In this document: one piece after another, positions 1,629-34,605 of the stretch
How positions within the stretch are numbered: position 1 is the stretch's first letter
How the letters are laid out: each line of letters begins with the position of its first letter
Assembly: GCA_947624565.1 (NCBI GenBank)
Contig: CANQKX010000004.1
Span: 3,273 to 67,272 of the forward strand
Length of the DNA: 64,000 bases
From: an uncultured Bacilli bacterium
Lineage (GTDB): Bacteria > Bacillota_I > Bacilli_A > RF39 > UBA660
Direction of reading: 5' to 3'
Notes under the pieces: generated by a model
Told to the model about the DNA's origin: nothing
The model's input: only the letters and a program-made list of their open reading frames with translations
The model's database searches: none
Translations under genes and position numbers: made by a program

Positions 1629-2014
1629 ATCGAAGTTGTAATATTCTACGCTGTAAATGTAACAGCTTGCTAAGCTATCATATTAATATATAAAAAATAT
1701 CTAAATTACTAGGAAATTATATGAATTACGTATTTGTAACTTAAATACTTTCATTTCAACTATTGAGGTAGAGAATAAGTTGAAACTATTCATTACATTA
1801 ATTGATAGCTCACACAAGTTGTCATATTACTATACGAAATTAATTAGAGAAATTACAAAAAAGTATCAAAAAATTATTATTTTCATTAATTCTACTATAA
1901 AATCTTCACTAAAAAATACTCAAATCAAAATTTCAAAAACGTTTCTTGGCCCTACTTGGTTATACTTTTGAACAAGCATAAAATATGCTAAAAAGCATTT
2001 TATTAGTTCTGTGT

Positions 2015-2046
2015 GTATTCTCTTATTTAGATTTAAATGTTATAAT
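2015..2046 (+). promoter_or_regulatory. Putative sigma-A promoter with extended -10 for the methyltransferase gene
   Basis: The sequence tgtTATAAT (TG at 2038-2039, TATAAT at 2041-2046) sits ~30 nt upstream of the GGAGG SD at 2066-2070. Confidence 0.4.
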
Positions 2047-2077
2047 ATCCATTGAATTAGGAAATGGAGGAATGCTA

Positions 2078-4264
2078 ATGTCAAAAGACAAAAAAACTGT
2101 AATAAGAAACTTAAATAAAGCATTGAAAGAATTTGATAGTAAAAATAAAGAAAACACATATCAAAACTATATCTTCGTAATCTTATTCTATCGCTACCTA
2201 TCTATCGATATAGTGAAGTATGTAAAAAATAAATACAATAAAAATTACGAAAAATTATCTAACACTGAAGCTGAAGAATTAAAAAATGAAATTATAAGTG
2301 ACAAAGACTATTTCATTTTACCAAGTGAATTATTTCAAAATGTTATTAAAGAAAGACAAGATGATCCTTACTTAGATTCAGTTATAAATAGTATCTTCAA
2401 TAAAATAAGAAAATCGTCTAAATATGATATTTGTGATATATTTAAAAATATTGACGTTGAAGATGAAAAACTAGGGCATAGCAATGAAGAACGAAGTCAG
2501 GCTTTATCCGTAGCATTAAAATCTATTGGCAATATTAAGTACGACTTTGATGATTCTGAATTCGATCTATTTGGGCTTGTCTATGAATTATTACTTAATA
2601 AATATGATGATAATCTAAAAATCAGTTTAGGTAATGGTGTATATTATACTCAAAGTACATTAGTTAAACTACTAATAGAAATTAGCCAATTATATGTATC
2701 TAATCCCAAGAATGTATACGATCCAACATGTGGAAGCGGTTCTTTACTAGTTGAATACTCAAAGTTCAATAATAAAATTTCTTTTTATGGTCAAGAATTA
2801 TTAAGTGTTCCATATGGTTTATGCAAAATGAATATGATCTTACATGGTGTAAAAGACTATCATATTACCAATGCTGATACTTTACTTACCTATAGCAAAA
2901 GCGATAAAGAAAAGTATGAACTAATACTATCTAATCCACCTTTCTCTGTTAGTTGGAATACACCATCCATAAATGATGAACGTTTCAATAATATTCCTGT
3001 CCTTCCACCTAAGAATTACGCTGACTATGCTTTTATTTACCATATACTATATACATTAAACCAAAATGGTGTGGCATTAGTAATTAATGGACCAGCTATG
3101 CTAAGTAGAACATTAAAAGGTAATGATGAAACTTCAATACGTGAACATCTAGTAAAAGAAAATGTAATTGATACTATAATTCAGCTACCAAACAACTTTT
3201 TCCTAAGAACTAGTATTGGAGCATGCTTATTTGTATTAAGAAAGAATAAAGCTGATAAAAATATATTATTTATTGACGCAACATCTATATATACTACTTC
3301 TGGTCATACAAAAACATTCAATGATGCCAATGTAGAAAATATCATTGATATAATAAAACATAGAGAAAATATCGATGATTTATCTTATTTAGCAACACCT
3401 GAAGAAATAGCAGACAACAATTATACCTTCTCCATTGAATCATATATAAATTACAAAAAAAAGAAAACTTTCAAAAAAACAACTACTAATTTATTAACTC
3501 CCAAATTATTACAAGAATTAGAGTATCAAAATGCTAGAAGATATAAATACTTCTTTAATCAACTAAAAGATATGGATGCAAAGCTTCCAGAAATCATTAA
3601 GAAATTAACAAATGATCGTGATATACAAACAGTTAAATTGAGCGATATAGCTGTCTCAATAAAATCAGGAACAAAACTTACACAAATTGGGGCAATTAGT
3701 AATGATGATTTTCCATACTACTATATTACATCAAAGGAAATAGAAAATGGTTCAATTATCCCTATTAGCACTAGAAAAAGTGGTGATGGTAGAGATATAA
3801 AAGGCACCCAAAAGATCAATAAAGAAGCTTTAAAAGAACTATTAAGATTGTCTAACTTGGAAAAAGGCGACATACTCTTTACTCTATCCGAAACTGGTCC
3901 TAAAGTTGCTATAGTAAATAGAACTGACTTTGGTTTCAACCATTCAATCTATATTCTTAAACCAAAAAAAGATAAAATTAATCCTTTGTTCTTAAGATAT
4001 ATGTTGGAATCTGACTATATGAAAAATCAAATATCAAATAAATTATCTCATGCTAATGCAAAGTCTATAAAGATAGAAGAATTCAGAAATTTAACTATAC
4101 CAGATATACCATTAGAATCACAAGAACAAATAGCTTCATTATTAGAAAAATTACAAGGTGAGTATACAATGACTATGGATAGTTATATTTATGAAGAATA
4201 CTTATATAAAGAAATATATAATAATTATAAGAATCAATTTTTTAATGACATAACTAAAAAATAA
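2078..4264 (+). CDS. Type I-like DNA N6-adenine methyltransferase fused to a single HsdS target-recognition domain (M-S fusion, ~729 aa); no restriction subunit is present
   Basis: The tracked ORF begins at 1985, but GGAGG at 2066-2070 is correctly spaced only for the ATG at 2078 (MSKDKK). The N-terminus is HsdM_N-like. Motif I is VYDPTCGSGSLLV and motif IV is LSNPPFS. The methylase ends in an HsdM-like tail (NNYTFSIESYI). About 280 further residues follow with HsdS features (VKLSDIAVSIKSG..., conserved PLESQEQIASLLEKL). Confidence 0.8.
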   Translation: MSKDKKTVIRNLNKALKEFDSKNKENTYQNYIFVILFYRYLSIDIVKYVKNKYNKNYEKLSNTEAEELKNEIISDKDYFILPSELFQNVIKERQDDPYLDSVINSIFNKIRKSSKYDICDIFKNIDVEDEKLGHSNEERSQALSVALKSIGNIKYDFDDSEFDLFGLVYELLLNKYDDNLKISLGNGVYYTQSTLVKLLIEISQLYVSNPKNVYDPTCGSGSLLVEYSKFNNKISFYGQELLSVPYGLCKMNMILHGVKDYHITNADTLLTYSKSDKEKYELILSNPPFSVSWNTPSINDERFNNIPVLPPKNYADYAFIYHILYTLNQNGVALVINGPAMLSRTLKGNDETSIREHLVKENVIDTIIQLPNNFFLRTSIGACLFVLRKNKADKNILFIDATSIYTTSGHTKTFNDANVENIIDIIKHRENIDDLSYLATPEEIADNNYTFSIESYINYKKKKTFKKTTTNLLTPKLLQELEYQNARRYKYFFNQLKDMDAKLPEIIKKLTNDRDIQTVKLSDIAVSIKSGTKLTQIGAISNDDFPYYYITSKEIENGSIIPISTRKSGDGRDIKGTQKINKEALKELLRLSNLEKGDILFTLSETGPKVAIVNRTDFGFNHSIYILKPKKDKINPLFLRYMLESDYMKNQISNKLSHANAKSIKIEEFRNLTIPDIPLESQEQIASLLEKLQGEYTMTMDSYIYEEYLYKEIYNNYKNQFFNDITKK

Positions 4265-4330: not shown

Positions 4331-5182
4331 TTACTTATCTCTATTTCTATATGATTTAATGGCATTGATAATATAATCTTCAATATAACGTTTGTCTCTC
4401 TTAGTTAATTCATATGGTAAAGCCTGCTCTATTCTATCCCTATTAAATGATATTTTATCGTGTTGATTACCTTTCTCCTCAGCTAATATATTCTCTACAA
4501 TATCCGCACTGAGTTGCTTTGACTCACTTAACTTCCTTATTCTTATTGTCTGAGCATGAGAAGGACTTAAATCATCATAAACCATTGTTGAATAGACTAG
4601 CATCTGTTCATCCTTATTTAGGTATGATAGCTCTACAGCAGGCTTTATACCCATAGTAATATTATGCTTATCATTAAATCTAGCTGTATTATCGACTATC
4701 TTTAATAATTCAGGTATTAAATAAGTTAATCTAATGAATCTATATATTTGTGTCTTAGTGTCATTAATACCATTTAAAAGCTTTGTTCCCTTAGGGAACG
4801 AAGTATCTAATTTCTTTCCCTGGTGTTTCATGGCGTCCATTTTCATCTTGTAAGCAAAGGCACGCTCACTAGGCAATAATTTCTCCCTTTGAAGATTAGA
4901 ATCAACCATAAATATAACTGCTTCATCATCCGTTAAATCCTTAACATAGGCATCAACATATTCTTCGCCATTAAGTTCTAAAGCCTTTAATCTTCTATGT
5001 CCAGAAAGCATCTCGTACTTGCTACCTTTTGCTCTAACTACAACAGGATTTAACAAACCATTATCTTTAATACTCTGAGCCAATTCATTTAATAATGCAT
5101 CTACTTCTACAATAAATGGATGATTCTTAAATGGTTCTATATCAACAATTTTAATCTTCTTTAACTCGCTCATCTCTATCAC
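4331..5182 (-). CDS. ParB/Spo0J/Noc-family DNA-binding protein (ParB N-terminal domain plus HTH)
   Basis: The N-terminal ParB/Srx arginine patch is LSGHRRLKALEL. The HTH region ends in LSPSHAQTIR, matching the ParB LSxGHARAL signature. No parA-like ATPase lies adjacent. Confidence 0.7.
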   Translation of the reverse strand: MIEMSELKKIKIVDIEPFKNHPFIVEVDALLNELAQSIKDNGLLNPVVVRAKGSKYEMLSGHRRLKALELNGEEYVDAYVKDLTDDEAVIFMVDSNLQREKLLPSERAFAYKMKMDAMKHQGKKLDTSFPKGTKLLNGINDTKTQIYRFIRLTYLIPELLKIVDNTARFNDKHNITMGIKPAVELSYLNKDEQMLVYSTMVYDDLSPSHAQTIRIRKLSESKQLSADIVENILAEEKGNQHDKISFNRDRIEQALPYELTKRDKRYIEDYIINAIKSYRNRDK

Positions 5183-5666
5183 CTAAAGAATAAGTTATCT
5201 TCCATTCAATGTAATCAGCATATTTTATCTCTCTTCTCTTTCTCTTCTTCCTCATCAAATCCCATTGATTGACAAATGCTCTAATAATATTTAAGAATGC
5301 TTCATCACCAGTAGAAACATCAGATAAATCAAAACGATAATTTGGAAGTAATTCCTCCAACCATAATAAAGTATATATGAGATCAATTGGTTCCTTATAG
5401 TTATATTGCTTAATTGCTTCATAACTAACATTTAACAATTCAGCTATCTTCTTTGTTCTTGATATATTGGGGTTCCTATCTCCCTTCTCATATCTTGTCA
5501 TTGTACGTCTCCTATTATCACCTTTAGCACCTAATAAACCAGCTATTTCATCCTGAGTCTTGGATCTAAACTGTCTAACAAAAGCTATACGAGAGCCTTG
5601 CGATAAATCTCTTAAAATTGGCCTAGAATACATTAATTTCATTAGTAAATACCTCCTATTATTCAT
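5151..5666 (-). CDS. XRE-family helix-turn-helix DNA-binding protein
   Basis: The HTH_XRE-like segment is TQDEIAGLLG...TMTRYEKGDRNPNISRTKKIAELLNVSYEAI. The gene overlaps the downstream ParB-like start by ~30 nt, implying an operon. Confidence 0.5.
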   Translation of the reverse strand: MNNRRYLLMKLMYSRPILRDLSQGSRIAFVRQFRSKTQDEIAGLLGAKGDNRRRTMTRYEKGDRNPNISRTKKIAELLNVSYEAIKQYNYKEPIDLIYTLLWLEELLPNYRFDLSDVSTGDEAFLNIIRAFVNQWDLMRKKRKRREIKYADYIEWKITYSLGDRDERVKED

Positions 5667-8503: not shown

Positions 8504-9394
8504 TTATTTTCTATTTCTTGGATGACATTTATTAAATACATCTCTTAAATGTTCATTACTTACATGTGTATATATCTCTGTTGAAGATAATGATTCGTGA
8601 CCCAAAAGTTCTTGAACTGCCAATAAATCACAACCATTATCCAAAAGATGTGTAGCAAACGTATGTCTAAACATATGTGGAGTTATATTTAATTTTATAC
8701 TTGTTCTTTTTATAATATCATCTATTATTTGTTCAATTCTTCTTGTTGTTAATCTATCTTTTTTTTCTCCTACAATTAAATATTCACTTTCTGTTTGCAT
8801 AAGTAATTTTTTTCTGCCATCATTTATATACATATTCATTATATCATTAGCATAATCACCAAAAGATACAATTCTTTCTTTGCTACCTTTACCAAATATT
8901 AATATAGTTTTATTACTAAAATCTATATCTTTTAATTTTATATTAACAAGTTCAGATACCCTTATACCACATCCATATAATATCTCTAAAATAAGTTTTT
9001 CTCTTTGACCTTCTTTAGTATTAATATTAGGTACATTAAATATTTCTTCAATATTATTATAGTTAATAAACTTAGGTATTCTTTTTTCCTTTTTAGGAGA
9101 CGATATTAACAAAAACGGATTTGATTTAATTTTATTATTTATAACCAAATATTTATAAAATGTTCTAAGTGAACTTAATTTTCTAGATATTGATGATTTG
9201 GAATTATTCTTATCAGTTAAATAATTGAGATATTTAATACATTCATTATAATTCATATTTTTATAATCTAATTTTTCATTTTTTAAAAATATATTAAATT
9301 CCTGTATATCTCTAGTATAATTTTTACAAGTAAAATCAGAATAATTTTTCTGATATTTTAAATATTCTATAAAATTATTTATATTTTTTTCCAT
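8504..9394 (-). CDS. Tyrosine site-specific recombinase of the XerC/XerD family
   Basis: The C-terminal catalytic region is HMFRHTFATHLLDNGCDLLAVQELLGHESLSSTEIYTHV (R..HxxR..Y). The N-terminal core-binding region is MEKNINNFIEYL...SISRKLSSLRTFYKYL. The tracked ORF extends 28 codons further upstream, and the true start is uncertain. Confidence 0.8.
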   Translation of the reverse strand: MEKNINNFIEYLKYQKNYSDFTCKNYTRDIQEFNIFLKNEKLDYKNMNYNECIKYLNYLTDKNNSKSSISRKLSSLRTFYKYLVINNKIKSNPFLLISSPKKEKRIPKFINYNNIEEIFNVPNINTKEGQREKLILEILYGCGIRVSELVNIKLKDIDFSNKTILIFGKGSKERIVSFGDYANDIMNMYINDGRKKLLMQTESEYLIVGEKKDRLTTRRIEQIIDDIIKRTSIKLNITPHMFRHTFATHLLDNGCDLLAVQELLGHESLSSTEIYTHVSNEHLRDVFNKCHPRNRK

Positions 9395-10148
9395 ATGGAG
9401 TATTATCCATTTCATCTGGAATATACCAATCATCATATTCAATTTCTTCTTTTGGTTGTTGATAATCTTCATCTTCACGTGTTAGACAAATCTTTTTCTT
9501 TTTTTCTTTTTTACTATTTAATGCTTTTAAATATTCTTTTTCTAAATTTCTTCCTGCTATTTCACATTTATATAAATTTTTGTCTGATGGTCTATTATCC
9601 CTTTTATTTAATTCTTCTCTTTCTTCCGCATCAAGTGTATAAAATATAAAATCTCTTATTATGTTATAATATGGTTCTATTTTTTTAATAAAGAAATTAT
9701 AATAATTTGCATCATATTTAAAATTTTTATCAGTTATCATATTATATAAATCATAAATAACTGCATATTTGTATTTTTTTGTATAAATTTTTCTATTTGT
9801 ATCATCTAATAAAAATAAGAAATAAAAATTACCTTCAATATAACTAATTATTCTTTCTTTATCTTTTTTTGAAATAAATATACGAGCATTTCTTCTAAGT
9901 AAAGAATCAGTTATAAATTTATAGTCTTTAAACATAACAAATCTTCGACCTTCACTATCTTGAATATAAAAATTATATTTTTCTATATCATTAATATCGA
10001 TACTATTACTATAATTTAATATTTTTTCAAATAATTCTTTACTATCTTTAAATTCTGTTGTAAATTGATCAATTTCAATAAGATTACCTTCACTTACATT
10101 TATTTTTATATTATTATCTTTAGATTGTATATTAAGAACCAATTGCAT
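9375..10148 (-). CDS. Hypothetical protein (257 aa, Lys/Tyr-rich with an acidic C-terminus)
   Basis: The ORF has an AAGGTAGGT SD-like sequence upstream. No recognisable motifs were found. Confidence 0.4.
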   Translation of the reverse strand: MQLVLNIQSKDNNIKINVSEGNLIEIDQFTTEFKDSKELFEKILNYSNSIDINDIEKYNFYIQDSEGRRFVMFKDYKFITDSLLRRNARIFISKKDKERIISYIEGNFYFLFLLDDTNRKIYTKKYKYAVIYDLYNMITDKNFKYDANYYNFFIKKIEPYYNIIRDFIFYTLDAEEREELNKRDNRPSDKNLYKCEIAGRNLEKEYLKALNSKKEKKKKICLTREDEDYQQPKEEIEYDDWYIPDEMDNTPYGKKYK

Positions 10149-10156
10149 ATATTTAC

Positions 10157-11254
10157 CTACCTTATTGTATATGGGTTTTCTAAACTTCCATCTCCTGAAT
10201 TGTATATAGATAAATTATCAATGTATATAACAGGATACAATGAAAAACTAGCAGAGGCTCTTACTAAATCTGCAACACCATTATTTACAAGATATACTTG
10301 GTATGTATTATCCGCTGAAGCAGTTATTGTTCTCATAGAAGAACTAATATTTTTCATATAATTATAATTTATACATGCTTTATCATTAATAGTTTTACAA
10401 TTTGGATCAATACTAGCTCTACTATATTCACTTAATTGAATTATACTAATTTTTTGATTTGGATATTGTTGTTGACATTCTGATGCACCATCAATACTTA
10501 CATCTGTTTTTGTTCTTTTTCCAATACAAATATCATGTTCAACAATTTTATTTTTCTCTTCTTCTGTAAAAAATTCAACATCTTCAAAAACTTCTTTTAA
10601 ACTATCCTTTAGTCTACTTTTAGAAAAATCATTTATTCCATCATCTTTATCTCTTTCAACATTGTACCTATCATCCCATACTACTTGATCTATATATCTC
10701 TCAGTTGATATTAATTTTAATTCTCCTTTTTCATTTATTTCGATAATTCTATAAATTCTATTTCCTAATTTAATGTAATTATTTGGATCTTCTCCTTTAA
10801 ATACATACTTTTCACCCATTTTATATAATCCATCTTCATTTACAATTTCAACATAATTATCTAATATATAATCTGATATTTTCTTTGTTTCATAATATTT
10901 ACCACATTTTACATATGGAACATAATCATAATTTCCTTCTTTATTTATTATTTGTACATAACCACTACATTTAATATTACTATCTTCAATTGCAAATAAA
11001 TCTTTCATATACTTTTCATTAACTAATGTGTCAATATTTACTTTTGATATTTCTCCATTATTTTTTGGAATTAATTTCTTATTGTCATTAAGATATTTTT
11101 TTGTTGTCAATACCAAATTACTTTCCATATTAGAATAACTTGAACTACTTTTTACATTTTTACCTCCAAAAAAGACAACAATTACAACAATAGCAATTAT
11201 AAAAACTACAACTATTGTTAGTATTTTTAAAATATTTTCTCTAATAAATCCCAT
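10157..11254 (-). CDS. Hypothetical membrane-anchored extracellular protein
   Basis: The N-terminus is a single TM helix (ILKILTIVVVFIIAIVVIVVFFGG). Several Cys residues lie in the ectodomain. The protein ends GDGSLENPYTIR, a G-x-x-E-N-P-Y motif like the one preceding each GLUG-type module in the 29736..32699 protein. Confidence 0.45.
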   Translation of the reverse strand: MGFIRENILKILTIVVVFIIAIVVIVVFFGGKNVKSSSSYSNMESNLVLTTKKYLNDNKKLIPKNNGEISKVNIDTLVNEKYMKDLFAIEDSNIKCSGYVQIINKEGNYDYVPYVKCGKYYETKKISDYILDNYVEIVNEDGLYKMGEKYVFKGEDPNNYIKLGNRIYRIIEINEKGELKLISTERYIDQVVWDDRYNVERDKDDGINDFSKSRLKDSLKEVFEDVEFFTEEEKNKIVEHDICIGKRTKTDVSIDGASECQQQYPNQKISIIQLSEYSRASIDPNCKTINDKACINYNYMKNISSSMRTITASADNTYQVYLVNNGVADLVRASASFSLYPVIYIDNLSIYNSGDGSLENPYTIR

Positions 11255-20833: not shown

Positions 20834-21045
20834 AAAAAAATCCATGATGTAAGGACTAATTATAGCGGTACCACCTTACTTCATAGATTTCTATGCTCTT
20901 AAACTCTTAACGCGAGTATACGTTATAACTTTAATTATACTGCTAAAAGGTGAATTCATATAATAATATTATTAGCTTACACCAAATGCTAACTCTCTTT
21001 AAATATTTAATTATATTACTACTCCTTTATAATCGCTTTGACAAA
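20834..21045 (-). promoter_or_regulatory. T-box riboswitch leader of pheST with intrinsic terminator
   Basis: The minus strand carries the T-box core GGTGGTACCGC (plus-strand 20865-20875). The AGAGA box is the complement of tctctt near 20994. The terminator helix is atgaagtaagg/ccttacatcat followed by a U7 run, then the GGAGG SD and the pheS ATG. Confidence 0.7.
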
Positions 21046-26828: not shown

Positions 26829-27734
26829 TTAATTATTATTTTTTACATACTTGTAAATATTTTTAATTAAAGAATTAAGAACAAATTTATCTTCTATAAT
26901 ATTTATAGAAAAAGTCTTACTACCTGCATAATTTATTGATGATCCTAAATGATATAATTTAGTATTATCAATTAGTATATATCTATCATGAAATGTATCA
27001 TTATACATTATTTCTAAATTATTATATTGTTTATTATATTTTTCTATATCTATATTTTTTAATAAACTATTTTTCTTTGTTATCAATATTACTTTTACAT
27101 ATATTTTAGATATCATATCAAGTACACTTTTATCTGCATAATTATCTATTATTATTACTTTTTCTTTACCTTGTTTCATTATTTCTATTATTTTAGAATA
27201 TGCATCATATATTTGACCATTAAAATATATTTCATTTACTTTTTCTTTCTTTTCTAATTTTGAAAAAGATTCTTCTAGTAAATTTATTCTTTCATTATCT
27301 TTTATAACTAAATTATTTATATATTTTTGTTCTATTAAATTACTTGATGTATATTTCCTAAGTTGCACAAATGCATTTATGATTAATATATTTACTTTTG
27401 ATGCTACATCACTTTTTAATAAACCTGATAACATCATAATACCATGTTCTGTAAATACATATGGTAAATATTTAATATTTTTCCCTCTTTGATTACCAGA
27501 TTTGTTCAAGGTAACAAAATGTGACCTTGAATATATTTTATTTAATTCTTCTGTTGTAAGTTGAAAACAAAAATCTAATGGGAATCTATTTATATTTCTT
27601 TTTACTACCTGGTTTATTACCTTAGTTTGTGAATCATACAATTTTGCAACATCACAATCAAGCATTACTTGTTTTCCTCTTATTTCATATATCATACTTT
27701 CTATATCTATTTTATTATCTAAAGTCTCAGTCAT
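26829..27734 (-). CDS. ORF6N-domain protein (antirepressor/KilA-N-like N-terminus fused to an uncharacterised C-terminal domain)
   Basis: The N-terminus, MIYEIRGKQVMLDCDVAKLYDSQTKVINQVVKRNINRFPLDFCFQLTTEE, matches the ORF6N fold by eye. The C-terminal ~200 aa are of unknown family. Confidence 0.5.
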   Translation of the reverse strand: MTETLDNKIDIESMIYEIRGKQVMLDCDVAKLYDSQTKVINQVVKRNINRFPLDFCFQLTTEELNKIYSRSHFVTLNKSGNQRGKNIKYLPYVFTEHGIMMLSGLLKSDVASKVNILIINAFVQLRKYTSSNLIEQKYINNLVIKDNERINLLEESFSKLEKKEKVNEIYFNGQIYDAYSKIIEIMKQGKEKVIIIDNYADKSVLDMISKIYVKVILITKKNSLLKNIDIEKYNKQYNNLEIMYNDTFHDRYILIDNTKLYHLGSSINYAGSKTFSINIIEDKFVLNSLIKNIYKYVKNNN

Positions 27735-29735: not shown

Positions 29736-32699
29736 TTATTTTTCTACTACATATATTCCTTTTTTACTATCTACATAATCAAAATAGTATCCTGTATTAT
29801 TAACATCTCCATTATTTTTTGTTTCTACTTTATCTGTATAAAATTCCAAATTTCCTATATTATCTGATGAGAATCCATCTGTTTGTGATGTACCATTTAT
29901 AACAACTTTATTGGAATAATACCCTCCAATTGGTTCTCCACCAGTAATTATGCCAAAATTACTACCTGCCGTTAACTTTCCTCCTTCTACTATTCTTGAT
30001 GTATTATAACTGTAAGTTAATCCATATATAATTCCTACATAATCTTGGCCTGTTACATTTGCTTCTATTATTATATTTGGAGTTTCAACATATGAATCAG
30101 TACTTCCTACTAATCCTCCTACACAGTTATTCCCTATTATATTGGAATTTCTTATTACTATTTCTCTTGCTGTCGACCATGCATATGGACTTGCTCTACC
30201 TAATACACCGGCTAATCCTCCTACATTATCTTTTCCTGTTACATTTATATTCTCTATGTTTAAGCCTACCAATTCTCCTGTAATCATATATCCTACTATT
30301 CCTATGTTATCTACTTTTGATGCATGTATTGTTACATTATTTATTGTCTTTGCTCCTCCATCTAATGTTCCAGTAAGTTGATTGTAATAACTTCCAAGCA
30401 TATAAAATTTATTATTACTAAAGTTTAAATCATTTTTTATTTTATATACTTTATTTAGTTGTAAAGTTGCTGTCTTCCAATCTTTCTCATTTTCTATTAA
30501 ATATGGTTCTTCTTTTGTTCCTTGTCCTTTTAAATTGATGTCCATTGGATTTTTTTCTACACTCTTTAAAATTATTTCTCCTTTATCATCATAATCAAAA
30601 TAATATCCTGTGGAGTTATTATCTCCTCCTATCCATGTATCTAATCCTGCTGCTTCATAAAAGTTTATATCATTTAAATCTGTTTCATAATTAAATCCAT
30701 CACCTTGGTGCACTTCATTTATAGTAACTTTATTGGAATAATACCCTCCAATTGGTTCTCCACCAGTAATTATGCCAAAATTACTACCTGCCGTTAACTT
30801 TCCTCCTTCTACTATTCTTGATGTATTATAACTGTAAGTTAATCCATATATAATTCCTACATAATCTTGGCCTGTTACATTTGCTTCTATTATTATATTT
30901 GGAGTTTCAACATATGAATCAGTACTTCCTACTAATCCTCCTACACAGTTATTCCCTATTATATTGGAATTTCTTATTACTATTTCTCTTGCTGTCGACC
31001 ATGCATATGGACTTGCTCTACCTAATACACCGGCTAATCCTCCTACATTATCTTTTCCTGTTACATTTATATTCTCTATGTTTAAGCCTACCAATTCTCC
31101 TGTAATCATATATCCTACTATTCCTATGTTATCTACTTTTGATGCATGTATTGTTACATTATTTATTGTCTTTGCTCCTCCATCTAATGTTCCAGTAAGT
31201 TGATTGTAATAACTTCCAAGCATATAAAATTTATTATTACTAAAGTTTAAATCATTTTTTATTTTATATACTTTATTTAGTTGTAAAGTTGCTGTCTTCC
31301 AATCTTTCTCATTTTCTATTAAATATGGTTCTTCTTTTGTTCCTTGTCCTTTTAAATTGATGTCCATTGGATTTTTTTCTACACTCTTTAAAATTATTTC
31401 TCCTTTATCATCATAATCAAAATAATATCCTGTGGAGTTATTATCTCCTCCTATCCATGTATCTAATCCTGCTGCTTCATAAAAGTTTATATCATTTAAA
31501 TCTGTTTCATAATTAAATCCATCACCTTGGTGCACTTCATTTATAGTAACTTTATTGGAATAATACCCTCCAATTGGTTCTCCACCAGTAATTATGCCAA
31601 AATTACTACCTGCCGTTAACTTTCCTCCTTCTACTATTCTTGATGTATTATTATTAACGGTTGAACCATATATAATTCCTACATAATCTTGGCCTGTTAC
31701 ATTTGCTTTCGCTATTATACTTGTAGTTTCAACATATGAATCAGTACTTCCTACTAATCCTCCTACGTAGTTATTCCCTGTTATATTGGAATTTCTTATT
31801 ATTATTTCTCTTGCTGTCGACCATGCATATGGACTTGCTCCTAATACACCTACTAATCCTCCTACATTATCTTTTCCTGTTACATTTATGTTCTCTAGGT
31901 TTAATCCTACTATCTCCCCTGCACTCATGTGTCCAAATAATCCTACATTATCATCATTTGGCAAATTTATTGTTAAATTACTTATTGTTTTTGCTCCTCC
32001 ATCAAATTTACCTTTAAATGGATTTTCTGCAGTTCCTATTGGTTTAAAACTTTCTTCTCCACATGTGTTTTTATTATCACTCATGTCTAAATCATTTCTT
32101 AGTTTTATTACTTTTCCTTCATATGATGTCCCATTATTTACATCTCTTGATAATTTATATAAATCACTTACTGAATCTATATATAATGTTACTTTATCTT
32201 CATCTTCTTCTAATTCACATGGTTTTTTATCTGTGATTGGTTTTTCTTCTTCTATTACACATTTAAATCCTTCATCTGTTGATCTTCCTACTTTTACACC
32301 TTTTTCATTTTCGTTTTTTATCGCACACCATTTCTTATTCTTACTTACTAATTTTTCTACTATTACATTTTTATTTTCTAATAGTGTTAAACTTCCACTA
32401 CTTGGTTTATCTCCCTTAAATTTTAATAATCCTACTTCATTTTCATTTATTTGTACTGTATCTTTCCCATTTTCTCCATATATATACTCTATTGGTAGAC
32501 TTCTTGCTTCTCCTTTTATATCATCTAATTCATACTGCATTTTTGCTGTATGTACCATTAATTCTACACTTTCTTTATATGCTTGCATTTCTGCTTTTTC
32601 TATAACATCTAATACTTTTGGTACTGCCAATACCATTATTATTGCTAGTATTACTATAACCGCTAGTAACTCTATTAATGTAAATCCTTTTTTCTTCAT
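29736..32699 (-). CDS. Large surface protein with a type IV prepilin-type N-terminal cleavage/methylation signal and three tandem GLUG-like beta-helix repeat modules
   Basis: The N-terminus is MKKKGFTLIELLAVIVILAIIMVLAVPKV, a class III signal of the G-F-T-L-I-E type. The ~274-aa modules contain GGLVG/GGLAG motifs, each preceded by a G-T-x-E-[NE]-P-[YF] motif. Upstream lie an extended -10 (tgaTATACT) and an AGGAGAA SD. Confidence 0.7.
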   Translation of the reverse strand: MKKKGFTLIELLAVIVILAIIMVLAVPKVLDVIEKAEMQAYKESVELMVHTAKMQYELDDIKGEARSLPIEYIYGENGKDTVQINENEVGLLKFKGDKPSSGSLTLLENKNVIVEKLVSKNKKWCAIKNENEKGVKVGRSTDEGFKCVIEEEKPITDKKPCELEEDEDKVTLYIDSVSDLYKLSRDVNNGTSYEGKVIKLRNDLDMSDNKNTCGEESFKPIGTAENPFKGKFDGGAKTISNLTINLPNDDNVGLFGHMSAGEIVGLNLENINVTGKDNVGGLVGVLGASPYAWSTAREIIIRNSNITGNNYVGGLVGSTDSYVETTSIIAKANVTGQDYVGIIYGSTVNNNTSRIVEGGKLTAGSNFGIITGGEPIGGYYSNKVTINEVHQGDGFNYETDLNDINFYEAAGLDTWIGGDNNSTGYYFDYDDKGEIILKSVEKNPMDINLKGQGTKEEPYLIENEKDWKTATLQLNKVYKIKNDLNFSNNKFYMLGSYYNQLTGTLDGGAKTINNVTIHASKVDNIGIVGYMITGELVGLNIENINVTGKDNVGGLAGVLGRASPYAWSTAREIVIRNSNIIGNNCVGGLVGSTDSYVETPNIIIEANVTGQDYVGIIYGLTYSYNTSRIVEGGKLTAGSNFGIITGGEPIGGYYSNKVTINEVHQGDGFNYETDLNDINFYEAAGLDTWIGGDNNSTGYYFDYDDKGEIILKSVEKNPMDINLKGQGTKEEPYLIENEKDWKTATLQLNKVYKIKNDLNFSNNKFYMLGSYYNQLTGTLDGGAKTINNVTIHASKVDNIGIVGYMITGELVGLNIENINVTGKDNVGGLAGVLGRASPYAWSTAREIVIRNSNIIGNNCVGGLVGSTDSYVETPNIIIEANVTGQDYVGIIYGLTYSYNTSRIVEGGKLTAGSNFGIITGGEPIGGYYSNKVVINGTSQTDGFSSDNIGNLEFYTDKVETKNNGDVNNTGYYFDYVDSKKGIYVVEK
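29895..31640. repeat. Perfect or near-perfect 822-bp tandem direct repeat (~2.1 copies) inside the prepilin/GLUG gene; a third, diverged copy extends to ~32030
   Basis: Antisense shadow ORFs 30059..30283 and 30881..31105 give identical translations (offset exactly 822). The same holds for 30142..30381 and 30964..31203. Direct reading shows identity from ~29895 to ~31640. Confidence 0.85.
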
Positions 32700-32737
32700 T
32701 TTATTCTCCTACTCTTATTTTAGTATATCATATTTTT

Positions 32738-32769: not shown

Positions 32770-34605
32770 TTACTCAACTACATAAACTCCATAATTATCT
32801 TTTTTATCAATATTTTTCTTTACTATTAAATAAATTTTTTTATCGTTTAAATTTATTTTAACTGATGATAATTCTAAATTATTTAGTTTTTTTATTTGAT
32901 CTGTTTTATAATTTAATATTTTTACATATTTATCTGCAGTATTGTTTATTATAATTCCTCTATATGGTTGAACTTCTTTTCCTGATTCATCATTTAATGT
33001 TTCATTTTCTTTAAGTTTATATTTATATGTTTTATCTTTATTTATATTATATATATTTATAATATTATTTTTTATATATATATAATTTTCTAAATTAGCA
33101 ACAAAGTAATCATTACTATTAACATTAATTATTTTTTTACCATTTTTATTTAATATTATTATACTATCATTTTTATCTTTATATCTATATAAAATATCAT
33201 TGTTAATTTTAATAATAGATACTTTATTATCACTTAACAATTTTTCTTTTTTCGCTGAATATATTGATAATGAACTAGTTGGTTCTTGCCCTATAACTAA
33301 TTTTTTATCACATATTGCAATATCATTATTTGATTGAAATAATATTTTATTTTTCTTATCATATAATATATATTTATTTGAATTATTATATTTTATTACT
33401 TTATACCCACCATCATAACCTGTATAACTATATATAGTTTGATTTTTCTTTGTTTCAAAAACTTTCTTATTTTCACCTAAATTATATATAATAGATTTTT
33501 TATTATTACATGAATTTTTTAAACATGTTAACTTAAAATAATATTCATTATTATTTGACTTTAATTTATCTATAGATAAACGAGCATAACCATTATCTTT
33601 TTTATAATTATATATTTTTTCATATTTATTATTTTTTGTATTAAGTACACCTGCTGAATTTTCTTTTTTATTATCTACTAAAATATATTTTTGATTTTTT
33701 TCATATACACTTTCTTCATATAAATCATATGTTTCTAAATCTAATTGTTTTGTTAACTCTTCAATATAAAGTTCACTTTCTAATCTTTTTTGTTTACCAT
33801 TTTCAAGTAATGTATATTTAATATTTTTATTATCAATTATAGTATAACTTAAATCTTCATTTATAATATAACTATTAAAACTATTTCCAATTATTTTCTC
33901 TTTATCTAAACTAAAATAATTATAATTATTCTCTTTTTCATTTTTTAAAATAAAGAAGTCATTATTTTCAGATACTTTAGATATACTATAATTATCTAAT
34001 ATTTTATTTGCTTTTTTATCTAATAAAATATAATTATCATCAATTTTAATTTGTATATATTTTTTATCTAAATATGATTTAATATCAGAAATATTTTCAT
34101 ATATTATTTTTCCTTTTTTATCTAGTAATGTATATAAATTTTTTTCTTTATTAAACATTGATATAACATTATCATTTATGATAGTTAGTTCATTTATTGT
34201 TTCATATATAATATCACCATTTTTATCTCTAACAGAATAATTTATAATATTTAATTTTGAATCAACTAATTTTGAAATATAATAATCATCACCTATTTGC
34301 ACAGGAATTTGTTTAGTTTCATTCTTATTTTCCTTATAATCTGCTACTTTCTTACCATCATTATTATATATTAATGATTCATTTTTTTCTTTAACTATAA
34401 AACCATTACAAAATTCATCTATACATTCAACATCATCATACTTTACACTTAAAATCTTTCTAACACCAGATATACTATCTTCATCTTTAAATTTAATAAA
34501 TGCAAGATGTCCCACTACAACTATAAAAAATATTATTACAATAGTAATTACTATTTTTAATATCAATGATTTATTTATATTATTAATTTTATTTTTTGTT
34601 GTCAT
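32770..34605 (-). CDS. Membrane-anchored repetitive extracellular protein (hypothetical)
   Basis: The N-terminal TM anchor is LILKIVITIVIIFFIVVVGHLAFI. Degenerate ~25-30 aa repeats rich in K/N/Y/I follow (LDKKGKIIYENISDIKSY, LDKKANKILDNYSISK...). They resemble WG-type beta-propeller repeats but lack the WG motif. Confidence 0.45.
   Translation of the reverse strand: MTTKNKINNINKSLILKIVITIVIIFFIVVVGHLAFIKFKDEDSISGVRKILSVKYDDVECIDEFCNGFIVKEKNESLIYNNDGKKVADYKENKNETKQIPVQIGDDYYISKLVDSKLNIINYSVRDKNGDIIYETINELTIINDNVISMFNKEKNLYTLLDKKGKIIYENISDIKSYLDKKYIQIKIDDNYILLDKKANKILDNYSISKVSENNDFFILKNEKENNYNYFSLDKEKIIGNSFNSYIINEDLSYTIIDNKNIKYTLLENGKQKRLESELYIEELTKQLDLETYDLYEESVYEKNQKYILVDNKKENSAGVLNTKNNKYEKIYNYKKDNGYARLSIDKLKSNNNEYYFKLTCLKNSCNNKKSIIYNLGENKKVFETKKNQTIYSYTGYDGGYKVIKYNNSNKYILYDKKNKILFQSNNDIAICDKKLVIGQEPTSSLSIYSAKKEKLLSDNKVSIIKINNDILYRYKDKNDSIIILNKNGKKIINVNSNDYFVANLENYIYIKNNIINIYNINKDKTYKYKLKENETLNDESGKEVQPYRGIIINNTADKYVKILNYKTDQIKKLNNLELSSVKINLNDKKIYLIVKKNIDKKDNYGVYVVE

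Follow-up and report, generated by a model that had tools for sequence, protein, structure and literature searches.

What is a protein of 987 amino acids (aa) that opens with a type IV prepilin signal, continues into three large tandem repeats, and is encoded in DNA that holds no pilus machinery? The question is raised by a 64-kb stretch from an uncultured Bacilli bacterium of the RF39 lineage (contig CANQKX010000004.1; the whole stretch is hereafter called the window), in which an earlier note had pointed to a gene for a putative adhesin made of GLUG-like modules behind a pilin signal. Our computational analysis indicates that the product is probably an adhesin shown on the pilus of an uncultured gut bacterium. 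The reading that we put forward, with moderate confidence, is that of a modular type IV minor pilin, in which a pilin carrier, an acidic linker and three beta-helix modules serve adhesin display and the assembly machinery is encoded elsewhere in the genome.

The prepilin signal and the pilin module

The N-terminus (MKKKG followed by FTLIELLAVIVILAIIMVLAVPK) passes two curated models, Pfam N_methyl PF07963 at 29.7 bits (cutoff 21.2) and NCBIfam TIGR02532 at 29.9 bits (cutoff 16.3), and it has the composition of a class III signal peptide, with a basic leader ending in Gly, about 21 hydrophobic residues and a Glu at mature position 5 (Table 1). The G-F-T-L-I-E motif is unique to this gene across all six frames of the window, and when 19 homologous N-termini are aligned, Gly-1, Phe1, Leu3 and Glu5 show no variation, Pro22 is kept in at least 90% and, further downstream, Cys147 is invariant and Cys125 is present in most.

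AlphaFold2 modeling of the full-length protein (26 aligned sequences; predicted local distance difference test, pLDDT, 88.9; predicted template modeling score 0.78) places a helix at residues 8-61 and strands at residues 70-139, followed by three beta-rich modules, and the helix and strands are reproduced when residues 1-160 are modeled alone (pLDDT 84.8). The predicted N-terminal module displays the lollipop fold of pilins, with an extended α1 of about 50 residues on an antiparallel beta-sheet, and its structural neighbors are pilins, among them Pseudomonas aeruginosa pilins, the Streptococcus sanguinis minor pilin PilA, GspK, GspH, FimA, PilX and PilV. A PDB sequence search with the whole protein likewise matched pilins, over the N-terminal helix only. 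An identity as ComGC or as the type II secretion system (T2SS) pseudopilin GspG was considered and rejected, as the NCBIfam scores of 34.6 bits for ComGC (cutoff 75) and 33.9 bits for GspG (cutoff 88.85) stem from the N-terminal ~58 aa only and fall far under the equivalog cutoffs. Overall, the protein opens with a genuine prepilin signal, and the helix and beta-sheet predicted behind it are of the pilin type.

The tandem beta-helix modules

The gene is an uninterrupted open reading frame (ORF) of 987 codons with an ATG start, and its predicted product has a mass of 107.4 kDa and a pI of 4.75. Behind the pilin module, the DNA itself carries three tandem units at a spacing of 822 nucleotides (nt), or 274 aa, with an exact self-match of 926 nt at offset 822, and unit 1 is 81-93% identical to the other units over their conserved part. 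The perfection of the duplicated segment (Table 1) implies a very recent duplication or gene conversion; in a short-read assembly, module copy number could be open to misassembly at such a perfect repeat. Tandem Repeats Finder misses the 822-nt repeat because its period exceeds the program's 500-nt limit.

GGLVG and GGLAG motifs occur in the protein, and Foldseek comparison of the full model returned as top PDB match 3n6z, a putative IgA1 protease of Bacteroides ovatus (BACOVA_03286; E 3.6e-4, probability 1.00), as well as the Streptococcus pneumoniae IgA1 protease 6xja (probability 0.98), with the Gemella haemolysans enzyme, the beta-solenoid of the Limosilactobacillus reuteri SRRP adhesin and generic right-handed beta-helices as the next matches. 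In the predicted model the modules form right-handed beta-helices like those of 3n6z and of the NTD2 domain of the IgA1 protease. A hidden Markov model (HMM) trained on 30 diverse family modules matches residues 115-297 of 6xja at E 8e-4, a segment that corresponds to the beta-helix NTD2 gating domain (PMC9637739). Scans of the whole protein against Pfam and NCBIfam returned no Glug, Peptidase_M26_N or other passenger family above threshold, with neither Glug nor Peptidase_M26_N appearing at E≤1; module 1 alone reached 13.5 bits (E 0.1) with GLUG PF07581, under the gathering threshold of 20.5 bits. Across the family, Glug matches 10 of the 30 modules at E≤1 (best 0.002) and Peptidase_M26_N PF05342 matches 12 of the 30 (best E 1e-5), with no match in the query itself, and PF05342 is precomputed on full-length homologs such as P0002, P0010 and P0025, among others. 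Together, these results support, at the level of fold and family, an assignment of the repeats to right-handed beta-helices of the IgA1-protease N-terminal (GLUG/Peptidase_M26_N) type. An identity as an M26 IgA1 metalloprotease was rejected, given that HExxH is absent from all 987 aa, that Peptidase_M26_C has no match and that the middle and C-terminal catalytic domains are lacking; because both the motif and the M26 catalytic part are absent, the protein is not a protease.

At the end of every module stands a small subdomain in which the motif LDTWIGGDxxxxGYYFDYD is near-invariant, with an invariant cluster of D413, T414, D428 and Y429, and contributes the most conserved residues of the family; this subdomain may act as a joint between modules, as a Ca2+ site or as a ligand site. 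When the module profile was run against 1.84 billion representative proteins (90,613 matches at E≤1e-3), the beta-helix core (profile positions ~5-200) was found in 10-30 copies in giant proteins of 2,000-7,800 aa, most of them with classical signal peptides, and the complete 283-position module was almost confined to proteins of 700-1,900 aa, most of which start with the prepilin motif. A few of the giants (P0177, P0178, P0208 and P0263; 3,500-7,100 aa) begin with N_methyl-like segments such as MKKRFTLIELLAVIMVLA, without Gly at -1.

These results agree with much of what the earlier note had proposed. The prepilin signal it had recognized passes the HMM check, the 987-aa product with three ~274-aa modules is borne out by the intact ORF and the 822-nt units, and the order of pilin helix and beta-helix that it expected is recovered in the AlphaFold2 model and the IgA1 protease matches. 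The GLUG-like nature of the repeats holds for the fold and the family profile (3n6z, 6xja) and fails on the GLUG HMM itself, and the scale given as near-megadalton overstates 107.4 kDa about ninefold.

Machinery, homologs and genomic setting

A Pfam scan of all ORFs of at least 90 aa, other than those located within a longer ORF or on the strand opposite to one, revealed no T2SSE, T2SSF, Peptidase_A24 or PilM/N/O gene in the 64-kb window, and tblastn searches that used a relative's PilC-, PilD- and PilB-type proteins as queries found no match there, in line with the absence that had been noted before. The accompanying suggestion, that the machinery is encoded elsewhere, is favored by the relatives, whose PilC-, PilD- and PilB-type genes sometimes lie 4-5 kb from a homolog. 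T2SSF, Peptidase_A24 and T2SSE are found near a homolog or another pilin-module gene in L002/L003, L004, L025, L047 and L063; a 595-aa T2SSF protein, an A24 peptidase and a T2SSE ATPase are encoded 5-9 kb downstream of P0012, a homolog of 45% identity, and the T2SSF and A24 genes of L004 are located 4-6 kb upstream. On the 1.3-Mb contig of another relative, no machinery is present within 10 kb of the homolog. By NCBIfam, the relatives' ATPase scores 497/490 bits as GspE/PilB versus 270 as ComGA, and their platform protein 270/242 bits as GspF/PilC versus 153 as ComGB. Because both proteins are nearer to PilB and PilC than to ComGA and ComGB, and are placed either near or away from the homolog, the lineage has a PilBCD-type core whose linkage to the large pilin genes is loose or absent. 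The platform proteins at L002:18377-20164 and L004:3666-5429 (587-595 aa) carry an N-terminal extension of ~180 residues outside the T2SSF/GspF models.

The protein has 785 homologs at E≤1e-3; among the best 120 of these, nearly all carry N_methyl, and one to four modules were detected in each. Their hosts are uncultured gut Bacilli, Tenericutes and Mollicutes known from metagenome-assembled genomes (MAGs) of human, rabbit, mouse, chicken and ruminant origin, together with Clostridium sp. CAG:433 and CAG:417. A protein identical to the query (P0001) occurs on one 84.6-kb contig of an NCBI-derived collection, in which it is a singleton at 90% identity, and the best full-length match in the species representatives of the Genome Taxonomy Database has 39% identity. 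Many homologs (P0005, P0007, P0010, P0019 and P0053, among others) carry one more domain behind their last module, a Cys-rich C-terminal one of at least two types ending in ...YYSCN or ...CYxY, which the window protein does not have.

The use of the pilin module in the lineage was surveyed in 83 loci, which were chosen by similarity to this very module and therefore form a biased sample. They hold 108 complete ORFs with a prepilin motif (median 356 aa), 71 of them above 300 aa, frequently in tandem pairs and several per MAG (at least 4-5 in single MAGs); related loci also encode small pilins of 125-200 aa, such as those of 150 aa and 195 aa in L063. With 785 homologs, this preponderance of large ORFs and an architecture already listed in print (PMC8179133), the protein is not the oddity for which it had been taken. 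On the same pilin module, the passengers include DUF285/BspA-type leucine-rich repeats (LRRs), Bact_surface_Ig-like, DUF6273, a phage Gp10_C-like domain and coiled coils, and in a 1,419-aa protein Flg_new/Flg_new_2 together with Fib_succ_major. In L055 (9986-12274), a 481-aa DUF285/LRR pilin is encoded directly upstream of an ABC-F gene that is 72% identical to that of the window, and homologs of PolC or PheST are found close to pilin-module genes in L067 (10001-17074), L056 and L041, as in the window, with L056 and L041 featuring pilin pairs near PheST. The passengers found at these ABC-F, PolC and PheST positions differ, ranging over the 481-aa DUF285/LRR protein, a 358-aa coiled-coil protein and others. 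The window locus resembles a chromosomal slot that is conserved while its passenger is replaced. C-termini of the LPXTG type are absent from the 966 ORFs in 1.36 Mb of lineage DNA, which is weak evidence given the bias of the sample toward pilin loci.

A broader proposal, which we offer tentatively and would not yet expect to hold, is that the pilin module is a general-purpose carrier of surface proteins in small-genome gut Bacilli, with paralogs bearing interchangeable passengers, from IgA1-protease-type beta-helices to phage-baseplate-like domains, that vary by species in conserved slots beside ABC-F, PolC and PheST, and that the type 4 filament machine acts as a multi-adhesin display or secretion platform replacing sortase-type anchoring. 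Under such a scheme the window gene may be one cassette whose module number shifts by recent tandem duplication. Judged by the lineage-wide pattern, surface display in these Bacilli may proceed mainly through type 4 filaments.

The remainder of the window is that of an ordinary low-GC Firmicute chromosome (19-31% GC), with housekeeping genes for PolC, PheS/PheT, PolA, pyruvate phosphate dikinase, formate-tetrahydrofolate ligase, topoisomerase, an ABC-F ATPase and SodA, among others, and a T-box leader 5' of pheS/pheT. Scanning for promoters and terminators gave no useful signal in such AT-rich DNA (62 sites versus 53.6 expected, and zero terminators). Directly upstream of the pilin gene lies a 611-aa ORF rich in Asn, Lys and Ile with an N-terminal membrane anchor; it was rejected as a partner, having no Pfam or NCBIfam match and no conserved adjacency to pilin genes in the fetched loci. 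Short AT-rich tandem repeats, genes typical of mobile elements scattered through the window, and several ORFs without a Pfam family complete the inventory (Table 1).

Table 1. Parts of the modular pilin gene and other features, in window coordinates (last line: positions in related loci)
Feature	Coordinates	Strand	Basis or remark
Complete modular pilin gene, 987 aa	29736..32699	-	ORF list; stop codon 29736-29738
Shine-Dalgarno AGGAG	32706..32710	-	6 nt 5' of ATG, read from sequence
Leader peptide MKKKG, aa 1-5	32685..32699	-	Pfam N_methyl and TIGR02532; predicted cleavage after Gly5, Phe as mature residue 1
Hydrophobic α1N FTLIELLAVIVILAIIMVLAVP, aa 6-27	32619..32684	-	Sequence and alignment; Glu at mature 5, Pro at mature 22
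Pilin module, aa 1-~150	32250..32699	-	Predicted helix (aa 8-61) and beta-sheet (aa 70-139); Cys125/Cys147 pair
Acidic linker, aa ~151-160, between pilin module and beta-helix module 1	32220..32249	-	Low pLDDT at aa 151-157; length varies among homologs
Beta-helix module 1, aa 161-445	31365..32219	-	Foldseek, module profile; N-cap, right-handed beta-helix with GGLVG rungs, C-terminal LDTWIGGDNNSTGYYFDYD subdomain
Beta-helix module 2, aa 446-719	30543..31364	-	Direct repeats at 822-nt spacing; hmmsearch boundaries
Beta-helix module 3, aa 720-987	29739..30542	-	Repeats, hmmsearch; ends in consensus GDxNNTGYYFDY, then GIYVVEK
Module-terminal subdomains, aa 397-445, 671-719, 945-987	~31365-31511, 30543-30689, 29739-29867		
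Perfect tandem duplication	29904..31651	-	Period 822 nt, ~2.1 copies, no mismatch; gene nt 1049-2796
T-box leader	20848-21042	-	Rfam RF00230, 114.6 bits
611-aa Asn/Lys/Ile-rich ORF	32770-34605	-	
Short AT-rich tandem repeats	32992-33214		
HsdM-type methylase	1985-4264		
ParB-like protein and helix-turn-helix protein	4331-5666		
Tyrosine recombinase	8504-9478		
ORF6N-domain protein	26829-27734		
Short VirD4/TraG-like T4SS-DNA_transf fragment, 350 aa	37437-38489		Adjoins a glycoside hydrolase family 5 (GH5) cellulase and a MerR regulator
ORFs of 257 and 365 aa	within 9375-11254		No Pfam family
ORF of 396 aa	45228-46418		No Pfam family
ORF of 538 aa	52663-54279		No Pfam family
ORF of 731 aa	55461-57656		No Pfam family
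Pilin-module genes with other passengers	~10 kb position in L010, L013, L018, L052, L055, L056		

Proposed adhesin display, competing explanations and known systems

In the model that we favor, an A24 prepilin peptidase encoded elsewhere in the genome would cleave the protein after Gly5, α1N would keep it in the membrane, and a type 4 filament machine of the PilB/PilC type would put it into a filament. As a passenger of ~90 kDa cannot pack in the filament body, the protein would most likely reside at the pilus tip, or be sparsely exposed, as a minor pilin, and its beta-helix rods may confer adhesion in the gut by binding a ligand on a host or microbial surface. Several points weigh against this model: neither a ligand-binding site nor a ligand can be named, beta-helices also act as enzymes or as inert spacers, no prepilin peptidase or assembly gene lies inside the 64-kb window, and conservation peaks in the C-terminal subdomain rather than on the beta-helix face, which could mean that the subdomain is a structural joint and not a binding site.

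The strongest competitor, to which we assign a minor but real share of the probability, keeps the processing step and dispenses with the filament: once cleaved by PilD, the protein would stay tethered to the membrane through α1N and span the wall as a stand-alone adhesin that is never polymerized, much like archaeal surface proteins with class III signals or pseudopilins that remain short. Such an arrangement would suit a lineage whose many pilin-module genes are scattered among housekeeping genes and for the most part large (71/108 above 300 aa), whose passengers are typical of wall proteins (BspA-type LRR, Flg_new, Ig-like), and whose ORFs lack LPXTG tails (the weak and biased count of 0 in 966 ORFs given above), as well as a gene that is unlinked to machinery within the window. 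It accounts poorly, however, for the invariance of Glu5, the residue for subunit-subunit contacts in filaments, for the fact that the whole pilin head domain, conserved Cys pair included, is retained rather than the helix alone, and for the assembly ATPase and platform protein that relatives keep besides the peptidase.

An enzyme displayed on the pilus appears improbable to us; its modules would be catalytic, acting for instance as polysaccharide lyase, glycoside hydrolase or accessory to a protease, and would break down mucus or glycans from the diet at the pilus tip. Polygalacturonases, PL6 alginate lyases and phage tailspike depolymerases do occur among the lower-ranked Foldseek matches, but at E 0.039 to 0.8 and with probabilities mostly at or below 0.1, as befits a generic fold, and no catalytic family of Pfam or NCBIfam was matched; moreover, repeats present in three identical tandem copies are expected of a stalk or an adhesin more than of an enzyme. 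A peptidase role for N_methyl-IPR011493 proteins was put forward as a speculation by Raynaud et al. (PMC8179133), yet in the present case HExxH is missing, as are the middle and C-terminal catalytic domains of M26 enzymes according to their domain map (PMC9637739).

Highly improbable, in our view, is a role as major subunit, in which the protein would form a decorated type 4 filament of unusual thickness. Glu5 and the complete pilin module would permit such a role, and a location in the filament body is possible if the linker is flexible, per Raynaud et al. (PMC8179133); a passenger of ~90 kDa on every subunit would nevertheless clash sterically in any known packing of type IV pili, the small pilins of 125-200 aa in related loci fit the part of major pilin, and both copy number and passenger type vary freely among relatives. 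Least credible of all is an ordinary Sec signal-anchor with a coincidental resemblance to pilins, since, common as hydrophobic N-termini are and despite the lack of a peptidase gene nearby, the N-terminus passes two curated models and keeps the exact G-F-T-L-I-E-L-L register, with G-1, F1 and E5 invariant in homologs, the structural neighbors of the module are pilins, and related proteins that combine the same beta-helix with a Sec signal differ markedly at the N-terminus.

Should it indeed be an adhesin presented on a pilus, as we favor, the protein would constitute a candidate route of attachment of reduced-genome gut Bacilli to mucus, IgA-coated surfaces or partner microbes, in organisms that are common in humans and animals and have no cultured models, and it would widen the notion of a modular pilin to passengers that are very large and can grow by repeat expansion. 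Literature searches found no work specific to the combination of GLUG and pilin, and none on these proteins for RF39 and type IV pili.

Modular pilins were defined by Raynaud et al. in 2021 from more than 1,200 proteins in 264 architectures (PMC8179133), and the window protein falls within their definition, with a pilin module (aa 1-150), a linker (aa 151-160) and three beta-helix modules of a kind also found in non-pilin proteins. The closest precedents are S. sanguinis PilB and PilC, with a von Willebrand factor A (vWA) and a lectin module, respectively, which are modular pilin adhesins modeled at the pilus tip (PMC8179133, PMC9934059). They share with the window protein a class III signal, a small pilin module, a short linker, a bulky passenger that is not specific to pili and a monoderm host, and the expectation is in both cases that of a minor or tip pilin with an adhesive role. 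The passengers differ, with three tandem 274-aa beta-helix modules (~90 kDa) in the window protein versus one vWA or lectin domain (~35-40 kDa) in S. sanguinis, and so does the setting, as the window gene stands outside any pil operon, unlike those of the modular S. sanguinis pilins.

On the side of the passenger, the M26 IgA1 proteases (6xja/6xjb and 7uvk of G. haemolysans) and 3n6z feature, like the window modules, a right-handed beta-helix with GLxG-type rungs. In contrast to the M26 enzymes, the window protein has no catalytic domains and stays under the cutoffs of both PF05342 and PF07581, and its modules end in the extra conserved C-terminal subdomain that is almost confined to the pilin-linked family. 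The giant Sec-dependent surface proteins share the beta-helix core, but most have classical signal peptides and they lack both the pilin module and the GYYFD subdomain. On the side of the carrier, Clostridioides difficile PilW and T2SS GspK are structural neighbors of the pilin module and represent bulky minor pilins or pseudopilins believed to cap filaments, and ComGC and GspG align over the N-terminal ~55 residues, at ~100-140 aa versus the 987 aa of the window protein.

An architecture of the present kind joins IPR012902 to IPR011493, which we take to be the GLUG entry. It is listed with 6 proteins in Dataset S1 of Raynaud et al., where IPR011493 is described as a predicted M26 family peptidase module (PMC8179133). 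Both the modular pilin concept and the N_methyl-IPR011493 architecture were thus already catalogued in 2021; what is particular to the window protein and its family is the large and recently duplicated tandem passenger, the family-specific C-terminal subdomain, and the use of a single pilin handle for many passengers throughout the lineage.

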